DNA from: an uncultured Alphaproteobacteria bacterium
GTDB lineage: Bacteria; Pseudomonadota; Alphaproteobacteria; RF32; CAG-239
NCBI GenBank assembly: GCA_934277545.1
Contig: CAKQUG010000008.1
Coordinates: 6,862 to 70,861, forward strand
Direction of reading: 5' to 3'
DNA length: 64,000 bases
Shown here piece by piece: positions 40,377-47,859 of the stretch. Numbering within the stretch: the stretch's first letter is position 1; every line of letters begins with the position of its first letter. The translations under genes and the position numbers were made by a program. The notes beneath the pieces were generated by a model. The model was not told the origin of the DNA. It did not search any database and was given only the letters and a program-made list of their open reading frames with translations.

Positions 40377-40811
40377 CTAGTAATTATAATATATCGTTTC
40401 GCCCAAACTGTTTTGATGAGATGTCTTCTTCAGTTGTCCGGTACTGTCCCGATACTCTGTATCTCCCAAACTGTTTTGATGTGAAGTACCCATCAGCATA
40501 CCACTGTTATCACGATATTCGGTATCACCCAAACTATTTTGTCTGGAAGTTCCGGTAAGCATACCGCTACTGTTGCGATATTCGGTTTCGCCTAAGCTGT
40601 TTTCTCGTGAAGTACCGACCAAACGTCCGCTATTATCACGATATTCGGTTTCACCCAATCCATTTTGGCGAGAAGTTCCCACCAAACTGCCGTTACTGTC
40701 TCTGTACTCGGTATCGCCCAAACTATTGGTATGATGACTTCTGACCTCGCCAAAACAAAAAGCCTGCGCTGACAACGGCAACAATAAGCATGCTATCAGT
40801 AAATATTTCAT
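40377..40811 (-). CDS. Secreted tandem-repeat protein (5.5 copies of a 21-aa unit NSLGDTEYRDNSG.L.GTS.Q)
   Basis: Signal peptide MKYLLIACLLLPLSAQA, then 63-bp DNA tandem repeats spanning about 40380..40727. Confidence 0.55.
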   Translation of the reverse strand: MKYLLIACLLLPLSAQAFCFGEVRSHHTNSLGDTEYRDSNGSLVGTSRQNGLGETEYRDNSGRLVGTSRENSLGETEYRNSSGMLTGTSRQNSLGDTEYRDNSGMLMGTSHQNSLGDTEYRDSTGQLKKTSHQNSLGETIYYNY

Positions 40812-44848: not shown

Positions 44849-44925
44849 GGCGGGGTAGCTCAGTTGGTTAGAGCGGTGGAATCATAATCCATGTGTCGAG
44901 AGTTCGAATCTCCCCCTCGCTACCA
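44849..44925 (+). tRNA. tRNA-Met (anticodon CAU; an elongator Met or lysidine-modified Ile2 assignment cannot be distinguished by eye)
   Basis: Cloverleaf: acceptor GGCGGGG/CCTCGCT (two G.U pairs), D-arm GCTC-AGTTGGTTA-GAGC, anticodon arm GTGGA-ATCATAA-TCCAT, T-arm GAGAG-TTCGAAT-CTCCC, discriminator A, CCA encoded. Confidence 0.85.
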
Positions 44926-45456
44926 TAACAAAAAAGGTCCTCTTTTGAGGGCTTTTTTTTGTTATAGGATAGCCGGAGATTTGAACTCGGAAAGAGAGTT
45001 CGAGAACAAACGAAAGGCAGACTTTAGGATGCCGGTCAGCAAAGCTGATGAGTGCCGTGTCGACGAAACGAAGTGCAGTCAATCTCCCCCTCGCTACCAT
45101 AACAAAAAAGGTCCTCTTTTGAGGGCTTTTTTTTGTTATAGGATAGCCGGAGATTTGAACTCGGAAAGAGAGTTCGAGAACAAACGAAAGGCAGACTTTA
45201 GGATGCCGGTCAGCAAAGCTGATGAGTGCCGTGTCGACGAAACGAAGTGCAGTCAATCTCCCCCTCGCTACCATAACAAAAAAGGTCCTCTTTTGAGGGC
45301 TTTTTTTTGTTATAGGATAGCCGGAGATTTGAACTCGGAAAGAGAGTTCGAGAACAAACGAAAGGCAGACTTTAGGATGCCGGTCAGCAAAGCTGATGAG
45401 TCCGTGTCGACGAAACAAAGTACAGTCAATCTCCCCCTCGCTACCATAACAAAAAA
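44907..45456. repeat. Tandem array: three 174-bp units (44907, 45081, 45255) plus a 30-bp partial fourth. Each unit begins with the last 19 nt of tRNA-Met (AATCTCCCCCTCGCTACCA) followed by the tRNA terminator hairpin
   Basis: Units 1 and 2 are identical. Unit 3 has a 1-nt deletion and 2 substitutions. The two long track ORFs across this region (both strands) are repeat artefacts. Confidence 0.85.
44936..44960 (+). terminator. Rho-independent terminator of tRNA-Met (ggtcctcttttgagggc + T8), re-duplicated in every repeat unit
   Basis: Hairpin and T-run read directly. Confidence 0.6.
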
Positions 45457-45506
45457 ATGTTAAACTTTGAGCGGATTTCAAACATTGTTTAACATTTTAG
45501 TGAAAA

Positions 45507-45938
45507 TTACTTCTTTTGCCATTGCATTAAAAATTCTTTTTCATTGGTAACATCATCTAATTGCTCACGGATGAAATCAAACTCATTTTGCTTATAAAAT
45601 TTGTAGGCAAGTTCATTTTTTTGATAAACCGATAATCTCAAACTATGATTCAATGATTTTGCATAATTCAGTAATTGCTTTCCAATTCCTTGCGCTCTGG
45701 CATCTCTTTGCACAAAGACGCCTGCGATAAATTCATCTTGCAAGCCTATAAAGCCCTTTATTTGATTATTTTTTTCATCTTCATAAACATAAACTTTGCT
45801 TTGCGGCAGCATTTGCTTAACAAAATCATAGTTTTGCTGCCAATATTCCGCTGCAATAAAATGATGCGCTTGCAGATTACCATCAAGCCATATCTGCATC
45901 ACCGTGTCTAAATCTGTTATTTTCAGCGGTCGTATCAT
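45507..45938 (-). CDS. GNAT-family N-acetyltransferase
   Basis: Acetyl-CoA-binding motif A (..VFVQRDARAQGIGKQLL..); 143 aa. Confidence 0.75.
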   Translation of the reverse strand: MIRPLKITDLDTVMQIWLDGNLQAHHFIAAEYWQQNYDFVKQMLPQSKVYVYEDEKNNQIKGFIGLQDEFIAGVFVQRDARAQGIGKQLLNYAKSLNHSLRLSVYQKNELAYKFYKQNEFDFIREQLDDVTNEKEFLMQWQKK

Positions 45939-46321
45939 TTTTTTCTCGGTGTCGGTAGTTCTTCGTAAATTGCTTTTATCAGTTGGCAGAGAAAATCACT
46001 GTCCTCCACATTATCCACAAGCATCATTTCCTTTGCGTCATCATAGGGAAGTTCCATACTTGCGTTTGGCATCATAGTCATAGCGGCTTTCCCAGGTTTT
46101 ACTAAAAATCTGTCGTCATCAATTCCGCCAATTACTTTGTCACAATAATAAATGATATATTCCCCCATCATCGCCAGATAGAAAACTTCATTCAATTCTG
46201 ACAGTTGGTCAACTATAAAATCCAAGAATTCTTTGCTTAATACCATTATTTTTCCCATTTTGAGAGTAATATTAAGGCAATTTTGGTTTAAAAAGGCATA
46301 AATTGGCTGTGATAAAATCAT
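45935..46321 (-). CDS. TfoX/Sxy N-terminal-domain-like protein
   Basis: ..MMGEYIIYYCDKVIGGIDDDRFLVKP.. resembles the TfoX_N core (FGG.G.Y.DG..FA.I.DD.LYLK). Confidence 0.4.
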   Translation of the reverse strand: MILSQPIYAFLNQNCLNITLKMGKIMVLSKEFLDFIVDQLSELNEVFYLAMMGEYIIYYCDKVIGGIDDDRFLVKPGKAAMTMMPNASMELPYDDAKEMMLVDNVEDSDFLCQLIKAIYEELPTPRKK

Positions 46322-46323
46322 TT

Positions 46324-47859
46324 TTATAAGTGCTGATTATTTATCTGTTTTTTACCGTTTGTGCGCTGTTTGGATTTTTGCGGCTGTAACATATCAGCTA
46401 ATCCGTTTACAGCAATATACGCCATTTGCGGACGATAAATAACTTCGTAATTTACTTCATATAAATTTTTACGCAAAACCTCCAGCCCCAGCCACGGCTC
46501 TTTTAAGCTATGCCCATTCAAAACCAAACGAGACGCCTCATTCATCAGCGGTTTAATTGCTTTTTCGGCATAGCTGCGGCGAGCTTTAGCGCTGACTTCG
46601 TCTGACGCTTCGGCCACAAATTCTTCAACACTTGCACTGCCCAAATAACCTTTAATTGAACGATACATACCGGCCAAATCTCGCACGGATATATGTTTTT
46701 GCGAACGTTCTTCCATAGGCGCAGCCGGCTCTCCGGCAAAATCTATAAAACGCAGGTCATTGTCTTTTGTAACCATTACCTGCCCCAAGTGGAAATCGCC
46801 GTGAACACGCACTAATTTATCATTGCTGTTTGCCACACCCGCTATTTGTTTTTTAACATATTCTCCGGTCAACTTATCCCAATTTTGCAAAAGATGCGAC
46901 GCCTTGTCTTTTGTCGGCTGCGGTAAATTTTCTAAATTATCACGAATTACATTGCGTGTTTTTGTCAACAAAAATTCCAAATGCTTTTGATAATGATGGA
47001 CTATTTTTTCGTTGACTGTTTCCGGTGTAAACGCAGGATTTTCATCTGCTCGAGACAAACATTCGGACATTTCTGCCGTTTTATCGCCAAGAATTTTCAT
47101 CAAACGCATAAAATGCGGATTTTCTTCCGGCATTAAATCTTTTTGCATTAAATAGCCAGCTGTCAGACGTTTTTTCAAATATGACAGAGCATAATTCCAT
47201 AAATCTCCCTGATTTTTGACATATTCTTGAACAATACCGGCAGATGATTTTGTATCATTCTGCAGATTACTTAACACAAAATAGCCGTATGTTTTCGGCA
47301 TAACCGAGCTGTTTTCCCTCATCAGCTTTTCATTCATTTCAAATTCGGGATTTTCTTTTTTGGAAAACTGCAGCATACGTTCCAATTTAAATGCAATTTC
47401 ATCATCGCCCACCGACAAAGTAGTATTACTTTGCTGTACGCCCAAAGGACGGGATTGTGCTTTACCATGCTCTTCCATGAAATTTTCGTCAACCAAATTC
47501 TTATAGGTCAGCTGCCAGCCGTTCGGAAAAGTTATAACATTATTGTTTTGGCGCAAAAATTCATTCATTTTCTGCCAATAGTCAGAACACTGCAAAGCGT
47601 CAACATATTTTTGACCGTCAATTTCAATAGTATCTGTTTCATTTTTTTCGGCTTTTGCCAGCGGCATCATAAAATAACGCACCGGCTCTTCAGAATGCAA
47701 AGACAAATTTACTTTACCAATGGTCAGCATTTTATTACCCTTATCAAACGGCAATGACATATAGCTGATATTTTCTACATTATCCAACCTGATTTCTTCT
47801 TTAAAATTACACCAACGTTGACGGAATAAATAATCCGCTGTATTTTTATCTATTGACAT
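46324..47859 (-). CDS. Maltokinase-like (Mak/Pep2 family, maltose 1-phosphate-forming) kinase
   Basis: N-terminal QQSNTTLSVGD (the EQSNTS motif of Mak) and catalytic ..RVHGDFHLGQVMV..IDFAGEP....ER...S.RDLAGMYRS.. matching maltokinase signatures. Confidence 0.6.
   Translation of the reverse strand: MSIDKNTADYLFRQRWCNFKEEIRLDNVENISYMSLPFDKGNKMLTIGKVNLSLHSEEPVRYFMMPLAKAEKNETDTIEIDGQKYVDALQCSDYWQKMNEFLRQNNNVITFPNGWQLTYKNLVDENFMEEHGKAQSRPLGVQQSNTTLSVGDDEIAFKLERMLQFSKKENPEFEMNEKLMRENSSVMPKTYGYFVLSNLQNDTKSSAGIVQEYVKNQGDLWNYALSYLKKRLTAGYLMQKDLMPEENPHFMRLMKILGDKTAEMSECLSRADENPAFTPETVNEKIVHHYQKHLEFLLTKTRNVIRDNLENLPQPTKDKASHLLQNWDKLTGEYVKKQIAGVANSNDKLVRVHGDFHLGQVMVTKDNDLRFIDFAGEPAAPMEERSQKHISVRDLAGMYRSIKGYLGSASVEEFVAEASDEVSAKARRSYAEKAIKPLMNEASRLVLNGHSLKEPWLGLEVLRKNLYEVNYEVIYRPQMAYIAVNGLADMLQPQKSKQRTNGKKQINNQHL

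Follow-up and report, generated by a model that had tools for sequence, protein, structure and literature searches.

Behind a tRNA-Met gene in a stretch of 64,000 nucleotides from an uncultured Alphaproteobacteria bacterium (GTDB lineage RF32; CAG-239; GenBank assembly GCA_934277545.1, contig CAKQUG010000008.1, positions 6,862 to 70,861 of the forward strand; hereafter, the window), the 3' end of the tRNA recurs in a tandem array of 174-bp units, and the unit is a conserved, structured and strand-specific non-coding module with locus-specific arms. Related units stand behind other tRNA genes of gut and rumen bacteria, and the family is apparently undescribed. The reading tentatively preferred here is that each unit is one copy of a "tRNA-tail" element, that is, a structured RNA that would be expressed by read-through and amplified by unequal exchange.

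ARAGORN, Rfam, Tandem Repeats Finder (TRF) and a 19-mer search agree with an earlier note on this DNA, made from the letters alone, that tRNA-Met is followed by 3.2 tandem 174-bp repeats. The first copy of the repeated core is the last 19 nt of the tRNA itself (44907-44925), from A58 in the T loop to CCA, and the 19-mer AATCTCCCCCTCGCTACCA occurs at 44907, 45081, 45255 and 45428, where 100 shuffles gave an expectation of 0. Each unit opens with these 19 nt and continues through the trailer TAACAAAAAA, a GC-containing hairpin and U8. The hairpin-T8 terminator that the note had assigned to every unit is shown by folding, though a simple terminator scan did not flag it; in the predicted fold, GGUCCUC-UUUU-GAGGGC is followed by U8, and pairing of an A-tract with the U-tract lengthens the stem. 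Comparison of the units likewise upholds the identity of units 1 and 2 and the 1-nt deletion and two substitutions of unit 3. The terminal partial copy is indeed present at 45428, with a length of 29 nt rather than the 30 bp first given, and what it has in common with the units goes beyond the 19 tRNA bases, through ...ACCATAACAAAAAA.

The overall plan of the unit is that of a tRNA 3' half, split at A58 by a core of about 75 nt and held against its own complement. Every unit of the family starts, immediately 3' of the terminator U-tract, with an antisense arm (seg a), in which the trailer, CCA end, T-stem 3' strand, T loop and T-stem 5' strand of the tRNA recur as an imperfect reverse complement. 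The GAACTC of this arm is predicted to pair with GAGTTC in hairpin P2; the T-arm-like GAGAGTTCGA that had been pointed out in the unit is real, being the sense copy of the T-stem 5' strand, and the equivalent hairpin at other loci carries the T-stem sequence of the local tRNA. The core follows the consensus ...GAC-NAC-AAGCGAAA-[P3]-G-[P4]-GAG-YGC..., and the supposed likeness of GGCAGACTTTAGGATGCC to the anticodon arm of a tRNA-Leu proved coincidental, as the loop of the P3 hairpin varies freely among homologues. The 3' linker stops exactly where the next copy of the tRNA 3' end begins, and the middle pair of its P6 helix, read by eye, is A-U, G-C or C-G depending on the locus. In the predicted folds, P1 forms between the antisense arm and the sense copy at 45081-45099, which thereby closes unit 1; the same copy opens unit 2. 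Single-sequence folds predict the closing helix P1 together with P2-P4 in five of seven full units, and the CCA end is base-paired in the folds of the window unit and of the unit at locus L018.

The conservation of this structure is most evident in P3 and P4, where pairing extends to 99.1% of the cells and 7 of 11 pairs have changed on both sides among 21 distinct sequences, one-sided change being almost absent. These values were reached in 0 of 500 shuffles, and slid registers drop to 17-56%. Across the family, P3 consists of GGCR/YGCC, tandem G.A/A.G, a C-G pair and a tetraloop, and P4 occurs as UCAGC/GCUGA, UCGGC/GCCGA, UUGCC/GGCAA, UCGCC/GGCGA or UGUC/GGCA. On the tRNA-sense (+) strand, the P3 loop is GNRA in 9 of 14 distinct loops, and the predicted fold of the + strand is more stable than that of the - strand in all 12 units. 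The unit therefore displays both the compensatory changes and the strand asymmetry of a structured non-coding RNA (ncRNA). Compensatory changes are present even in the divergent copies L032d and L047-2; the antisense arm of L032d, for instance, has GGGGAA to go with a 3' copy altered to CUUCCCC, as judged by eye. The antisense arm pairs best with its own neighboring tRNA at seven of nine loci, the two exceptions having near-identical T arms, with mean energies of -28.6 kcal/mol on the diagonal and -18.4 kcal/mol off it. A covariance-model search, which the note had recommended, was informative in one respect and empty in another: the model made for this family, R1, detects the core copies of the window, and Rfam 15, searched at permissive E-values with the window region and five other loci, matched nothing but tRNA.

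Outside the window, a 24-nt pattern of the unit matched five GTDB species, all uncultured gut Alphaproteobacteria, and every match lies at tRNA-Met or in array fragments; among these species the unit is about 95% conserved while the flanking genes are only about 75-80% identical. At L018, where the upstream protein is 79% identical, the T stem of the tRNA-Met is different (GTTGG/CCGAC); downstream come a terminator, a single diverged unit, a copy of the 3' end of this tRNA, AATCCGACCCTCGCTACCA, from the same start position, and a second, different terminator. Both the arms and the 3' copy are altered together with the T stem of that tRNA. A conserved-core pattern retrieved ten true loci from metagenomes, and a protein-database search with the spurious translation of a unit yielded about 15 further clusters, for which three loci were retrieved. 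Units stand behind at least eight tRNA genes, typed by ARAGORN as Met, Asn(GTT), Gly(CCC), Ser(TGA), Arg(ACG), Ser(GGA), Lys(TTT) and an odd "Ser(CGA)", the last in the low-GC carrier L047; the carriers are gut and rumen bacteria, their taxonomy being known for the Met clade only. For Met, Asn, Gly, Lys and further tRNAs alike, the direct repeat begins at A58 of the T loop. Looking for the unit elsewhere, as had been advised, thus produced homologues behind other tRNA genes and no recombinase gene linked to any of them, and the presence of the core at loci outside this tRNA context, an outcome named beforehand as counting against an attachment-site (att) origin, speaks against a simple version of that origin.

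The contexts of the family are chromosomal, with rpoD, dnaB, murA and leuS-holA among the neighbors; no conserved protein neighbor recurs across the loci, and the next gene downstream is mostly convergent. Core similarity does not track tRNA type: the window core, at tRNA-Met, is 88% identical to that of L038 at tRNA-Ser and 62% identical to that of L018 at tRNA-Met, Met units are 62-66% identical among themselves, and two core subfamilies lie adjacent in one array, L032. Tandem duplication also occurs at other tRNAs (L035, L047, L051 and P0133) and is a habit of the family. In the empty-site comparison, core-less relatives at tRNA-Met (L019, L020 and L045) have a plain terminator and lack the antisense arm as well, and most loci of LPG-synthase homologues in further species have no tRNA.

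Table. Features of the tRNA-Met locus and of its tandem units, in positions of the window.
Feature	Position	Strand	Description	Basis
tRNA-Met(CAT) gene	44849-44925	+		ARAGORN; Rfam tRNA, 60 bits
Tandem array	44907-45456	+	One array, period 174, 3.2 copies, 99% matches, score 1079	TRF
Unit 1	44907-45080	+	174 bp	
Unit 2	45081-45254	+	Identical to unit 1	
Unit 3	45255-45427	+	173-bp variant; one 1-nt deletion and two G>A substitutions relative to units 1 and 2	
Terminal partial copy	45428-45456	+	29 nt	
Trailer and terminator-like hairpin	44926-44960	+	TAACAAAAAA, hairpin GGTCCTC/GAGGGC and T8; intrinsic-terminator-like; again at 45100-45134 and 45274-45308	Sequence, fold
Antisense arm (seg a)	44961-44988	+	GTTAT and A, then GGATAGCCGGAGATTTGAACTC (44967-44988); again at +174 and +348	Sequence, folds
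P2 loop and sense T-stem 5' strand	44989-45003	+	GA-rich loop GGAAAGA (44989-44995), then T-stem 5' strand and TTCGA, together GAGAGTTCGA (44994-45003)	
Conserved core module	44997-45070	+	Copies also at 45171-45244 and 45345-45417	Covariance model R1: 89.6, 89.6 and 79.3 bits (its E-values are rough)
Core junction	within 44997-45070	+	ACAAACGAAA	
P3	45016-45033	+	GGCA..UGCC, tandem G.A/A.G, tetraloop	
P4	45035-45049	+	GUCAGC-AAA-GCUGAU	
GAUGAG/UGC	within 44997-45070	+	Listed among the parts of the core	
Variable 3' linker	45050-45080	+	Weak P5; P6 helix GAC...GUC holding a CGAAG motif	Alignments
Sense copy of tRNA 3' end	45081-45099	+	A58 to CCA; also at 45255-45273 and 45428-45446	
AT-rich inverted repeat	45455-45498	.	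AAATGTTAAAC...GTTTAACATTT; separates the array from the convergent GNAT gene; right flank of the locus, conserved	

The number of units differs within the species, as established by a strain comparison of contigs encoding an identical upstream protein, to which metagenome contigs were added. Counts of 1, 1.5, 2, 3.2 and at least 3.5 units were obtained, the low ones being lower bounds, as short-read assemblies may collapse repeats. Loci L002, L007 and L011 have one unit; L004 and L006 have one unit and an internally deleted one; L001 has 1.5 units, then the end of an insertion sequence (IS) and a large adhesin-like gene; L003 has a truncated unit and an IS remnant of about 300 bp; and L005 and L008 have no unit, an island standing directly 3' of the tRNA. 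Two units are present in the metagenome contig L040 and at least 3.5 in L031. The copy number is thus polymorphic rather than fixed, in line with the recent amplification that the note had deduced. The window array can be written [A][A][B], where the B unit is the one that L007 and L011 carry singly and the A unit is one base away from that of L002; such an array, together with the strain variants, is the pattern expected from unequal exchange. The AT-rich inverted repeat on the right also comes after the last core copy in L002, L004, L007 and L032.

In sister strains, a serine-recombinase island integrates at the repeated tRNA ends. This island encodes a DUF2924 protein and a large serine recombinase (L005, 2392-6270; L008, from 5097 onward), and in L005 and L008 its junction reads ...CTCGCTACCA/AGTTGAAAAGAGG, after ...CTACCA, the island bringing its own terminator. 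The left end of the island also adjoins the tRNA-end copy that closes the last unit in L012, L014 and L040, and a matching right junction, GTGTTGACAGCTTTCCACTACCA/TAAC, is found in L014 (1-4860) beside lipopolysaccharide-type cargo; unit and island therefore lie side by side in L014 and L040. In L017 (340-400), the island arm is joined in inverted orientation to a quasi-palindromic partner across the terminator. The recovered part of the island has no matches in viral contigs. The first hairpin of the unit and its immediate vicinity have received insertions of an ISL3-family IS (end GGTTCATCGTCAAAGTTGGGGGCAGAG; in L013 with a DDE_Tnp_ISL3 transposase) at slightly different points (L001, 5348; L003, 5173; L013, about 3023 on the - strand; L031, about 8700; L032, about 3260; L017, 386), and the variety of these points in different strains suggests a local insertion hotspot. 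An IS origin of the unit was accordingly rejected, as these insertions went into the unit and did not give rise to it. The att-site reading proposed in the note stands insofar as the 19-mer copies are used by the island; it fails for the DNA between the copies, which is a conserved structured module rather than a shrunken island or an empty att array. Among the alternatives listed there, a tRNA-derived satellite or small-RNA locus came closest.

The tRNA-tail reading, held with somewhat less than even confidence, may be set out as follows. The element lies just past the terminator of a tRNA gene, in the orientation of the tRNA, and comprises, in order, an antisense 3' part of the tRNA, a GA-rich loop, the sense T-stem 5' strand with UUCGA, a core of about 75 nt at A58, the sense stretch from A58 to CCA, and the trailer with its terminator. 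Because no promoter-like site lies within the units, its RNA would be made by read-through from the tRNA promoter and would end at the terminator of the unit itself. This RNA may fold into a closed junction: the antisense arm would clamp the two parts of the sense copy through P1 and P2, leaving the core to project from the T-loop position. The direct repeats of 29-60 bp that flank a unit (tRNA 3' end, trailer and terminator) would allow unequal homologous exchange to duplicate or delete it, and once two 174-bp copies were present the array could expand and contract easily, which would account for the [A][A][B] array here and for the other copy numbers elsewhere. The repeated tRNA ends also act as extra attB sites for the serine-recombinase island.

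The weakest step of this account, given about the same confidence, is that the element is a selfish, non-autonomous RNA that occupies a harmless, read-through-transcribed site behind tRNA terminators and may be re-targeted through its tRNA-matching arms; a selfish element is favored here and a host regulator is thought less likely. The selfish reading draws on the sporadic presence of units among relatives, on a core similarity that ignores tRNA type to the point of placing two subfamilies in one array, on a harmless location still within reach of read-through, on the lack of a conserved protein neighbor with downstream genes mostly convergent, and on the empty result with Rfam 15.

Several observations weigh against the tRNA-tail reading. 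The promoter scan showed no promoter-like site in the units, and a good terminator stands before every unit, so that transcription is a matter of inference. No mobilizing enzyme lies beside any copy found, no "empty" target hairpin was seen among the loci examined, and we know of no mechanism by which both arms could be adapted to a new tRNA. The copies seen per genome are few and every copy, including the divergent ones, keeps its structure, which fits selection at the level of the host equally well. L041 and L048 have no 3' tRNA copy, and the closed P1 helix is therefore not universal. The structural evidence itself comes from about 20 distinct sequences, several of them recovered with a pattern taken from the core, and G.U pairs and GNRA-like loops do not strictly tell an RNA from a folded single-stranded DNA.

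A bolder form of the idea, which is rather unlikely as matters stand, is that the family represents a new class of re-targetable, tRNA-anchored RNA element, whose core is borne on an antisense/sense helix and which would either home behind tRNA genes by pairing with the tRNA 3' end, as an RNA-guided element that is protein-less or mobilized in trans, or bring some activity to bear on the T loop of that tRNA. Class C group II introns, which home just behind intrinsic terminators, offer a parallel by resemblance only, in that they too combine a site right after a terminator, read-through and internal complementarity to the target. However, the unit is only about 140 nt long, has neither a reverse-transcriptase open reading frame (ORF) nor a domain V/VI signature nor a group II match in Rfam, and its target-matching arm, of 25-30 nt, lies outside the inserted core. 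To our knowledge, no system sets a conserved core into a sense copy of the neighboring tRNA and adds an antisense copy of the same tRNA.

An unlikely but serious alternative is an ncRNA that serves the host and is tied to tRNA biology, its read-through transcript acting on or for the neighboring tRNA as a decoy or sponge with the tRNA 3' strand, as a clamp for 3'-extended precursors, or as a protein platform on the core, with the array raising the dosage. The position, strand and architecture of the unit relative to the tRNA are strictly conserved, purifying selection on structure extends to the compensatory changes of L032d and L047-2 (including the CUUCCCC/GGGGAA pair read by eye), a terminator ends each array, and the few copies seen per genome come with no mobilizing gene, all of which speak for such an RNA. 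At the same time, the unit is sporadic, being absent from close relatives that have the same tRNA-Met locus, its core similarity disregards tRNA type, and no partner gene is conserved; complementarity of the arm to the 3' half of the tRNA itself would seem harmful to the precursor, and the pairing of the CCA end in the window and in L018 does not suit a conventional acceptor mimic. The known counterpart would be 3'ETS-leuZ of E. coli, a small RNA from the external transcribed spacer 3' of a tRNA, which lies before the terminator and is an unstructured sponge with no tRNA copies. The unit resembles such RNAs as an ncRNA riding downstream of the tRNA on its transcription unit, if transcribed as supposed; it differs in standing after the terminator and in being built of sense and antisense tRNA pieces.

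Alternatively, the conserved fold could be that of single-stranded DNA, the unit being a recombination site or miniature integrative element whose arms mimic the double-stranded T-arm region, with a recombinase, supplied in trans, that would recombine it with the real tRNA gene, and arrays built by repeated integration; this is improbable. It would fit a direct repeat with a constant start at A58 (in Met, Asn, Gly, Lys and further tRNAs), the match of both arms to the target, the conservation of structure rather than sequence, and a locus that is a recombination hotspot, where an inverted pseudo-site beside the terminator was used once (L017) and where, in the L047 and L034 arrays, a GNAT gene lies inside like a cassette. 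Integron attC and CTX-phage attP are folded single-stranded recombination sites that conserve structure over sequence, and the unit is like them, by resemblance only, in its imperfect palindrome, strand bias, tandem arrays and a fold mimicking a double-stranded target. It is unlike them in having no linked integron integrase or Xer context, in not following the R'/R'' consensus (by eye), and in its large branched core with GNRA loops. Moreover, no recombinase gene is linked to any unit, the sole island seen uses a serine recombinase and joins at CCA/TAAC rather than in the T loop, the GNRA loops and the tandem G.A pairs are features characteristic of RNA, a branched insert of about 75 nt in a crossover region has no known precedent, and viral contigs, phages and plasmids contained no match to the unit.

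The array might also be the scar of an integrative element, either a remnant like the cis-mobilizable elements (CIMEs) or a tandem att array, left when an island lost its interior and the att-flanked remnant was amplified, a reading that is now largely refuted and very improbable. CIMEs are deletion derivatives of a specific integrative and conjugative or integrative and mobilizable element and share the ends of that element. The tandem arrangement of unit and island in L014 and L040 is CIME-like; the ends of the island, AGTTGAAAAGAGG on the left and GTGTTGACAGCTTTCCACTACCA on the right arm, are however unrelated to the unit, whose covariation is of the RNA type. Displaced tRNA-gene fragments, present as att direct repeats, are the classic mark of islands and prophages integrating at tRNA genes (PMC4383910, PMC9897764), and short, non-autonomous, att-flanked CIMEs and their tandem accretion with integrative elements are known (PMC5704250). 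The window array shares with such repeats a direct repeat that is identical to the tRNA 3' end, starts in the T loop, runs past CCA and is used by a real island in sister strains. In contrast, only about 145 bp (145-155) separate its repeats, with no integrase or cargo, and the interior is unlike the ends of the island seen here, being a structured module common to unrelated tRNA loci with an antisense tail copy that integration does not produce and that the remnant reading leaves without explanation. The same core stands behind seven other tRNA genes with compensatory changes, GNRA loops and strand bias, which a decaying remnant would lose.

Two further readings are less credible still. A small hammerhead-like self-cleaving ribozyme, cutting ...GUC/AAUC at the unit boundary and freeing unit-length RNAs as in satellite or retrozyme repeats, was suggested by CUGAUGAG...CGAAAC...GUC in the window unit, with GUC exactly at the repeat boundary, and is barely tenable: there is no helix I and none can form, CUGAUGA belongs to P4 and changes along with it (most homologues have CCGAUGA or GCAAUGA), GAAAC is not conserved, the bases before the junction vary (GUC, AAC, GCC or GGC), and Rfam gave no hammerhead, twister, pistol, hatchet or hepatitis delta virus ribozyme match at E up to 10. 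The least credible, a functionless local duplication of ordinary tRNA-downstream spacer, would fit the identity of units 1 and 2 and the variable copy number, as expected for recent slippage or unequal exchange; it accounts for the amplification and not for the unit, for which it is refuted by a conservation of about 95% against about 75-80% for the flanking genes and by structured homologues at other tRNAs. Even jointly, the remnant, ribozyme and neutral readings carry only a small part of the probability.

Other candidates were rejected outright. A permuted two-piece transfer-messenger RNA or tRNA-like gene is contradicted by ARAGORN, which finds tRNAs only, and by a CCA end that is paired and not free. 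A phage or plasmid origin is not borne out, as phages matched in the tRNA only, plasmids not at all, and viral contigs gave no match for four patterns. Type III toxin-antitoxin (ToxI-like) repeats would have an adjacent cognate toxin; there is none, and the other loci have unrelated neighbors. The array contains ORFs of 199 aa (44882-45481, - strand) and 190 aa (44891-45463, + strand), which arise because 174 is divisible by 3 and the unit has open frames; a coding repeat was dismissed, as the frame is open in the window but contains stops in L018, L035, L034 and L041, and residue changes follow the covariation of the stems. The antisense arm is not a generic palindromic outgrowth of any tRNA terminator, since core-less loci, in a small sample, have no arm. 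A transposon of the type of miniature inverted-repeat or palindrome-associated transposable elements does not fit terminal arms that differ by locus and match the local tRNA, nor the placement of the copies seen, all of them behind tRNA genes or in a single array with a GNAT gene.

The flanks of the window array are ordinary chromosome, with mdh, a Sel1-repeat protein and an LPG-synthase-TM protein upstream, and a convergent GNAT gene, two unknown ORFs and MalQ downstream. The neighboring GNAT protein was considered as a tRNA-acetylating toxin and discarded, as it is YjaB-like and unrelated to the GNAT protein in the L034 and L047 arrays. The two ORFs upstream of the GNAT gene (45935-46321 and 46324-47859, - strand) encode 128 and 511 aa, neither matching Pfam, and the shorter one shares 4 nt with the start of GNAT. 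The tRNA-Met of the window has an A50.C64 mismatch in the T stem (Rfam alignment) and wobble pairs G1.U72 and G5.U68 in the acceptor stem; it may be an elongator Met or a lysidine-modified Ile2 tRNA. Elsewhere in the window, a 63-bp tandem repeat at 40450-40727 (TRF: 4.4 copies, 70% matches, score 204) lies inside a minus-strand ORF of 144 aa (40377-40811), which probably encodes a repeat protein.

Some arrays of the family have peculiarities of their own. In L051 (2317-2640), behind tRNA-Lys(TTT), the unit period is 224 bp and the 3' tRNA copy is remodeled into a small terminator (CACCGAGCCGGTG and T7), which indicates that the 3' end of the element is evolutionarily flexible. In L047 (290-1420) and L034 (914-1768), a gene for a GNAT acetyltransferase of 168 aa, unrelated to the GNAT of the window, is set within the array like a cassette, the order being two units, the GNAT gene, a tRNA-end copy, a terminator and a truncated unit. 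The tRNA of L047 (140-216) is typed by ARAGORN as Ser(CGA), but its 77 nt and the lack of the long variable arm of tRNA-Ser make this identity doubtful. About 1.4 kb upstream of the units of L032, in one strain, stand five tRNA genes (Val, Thr, Tyr, Gln and Lys; 1408-1832), probably carried by a mobile element inserted at the locus.

Gene callers translate the units into spurious proteins, which are already in public databases (e.g., P0121 and P0123) and provide a handle for finding further units. If the family is real and expressed, gut and rumen bacteria would harbor a structured RNA linked to tRNAs, or a mobile element, of a new kind, with arms rewritten for each tRNA and a constant core, a pattern that normally signals a guide-plus-scaffold logic. 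It would also offer a testable case of short non-coding elements colonizing the "safe harbor" behind tRNA terminators, and, by multiplying tRNA-borne attB sites, such elements would shape the integration and loss of islands at tRNA hotspots.

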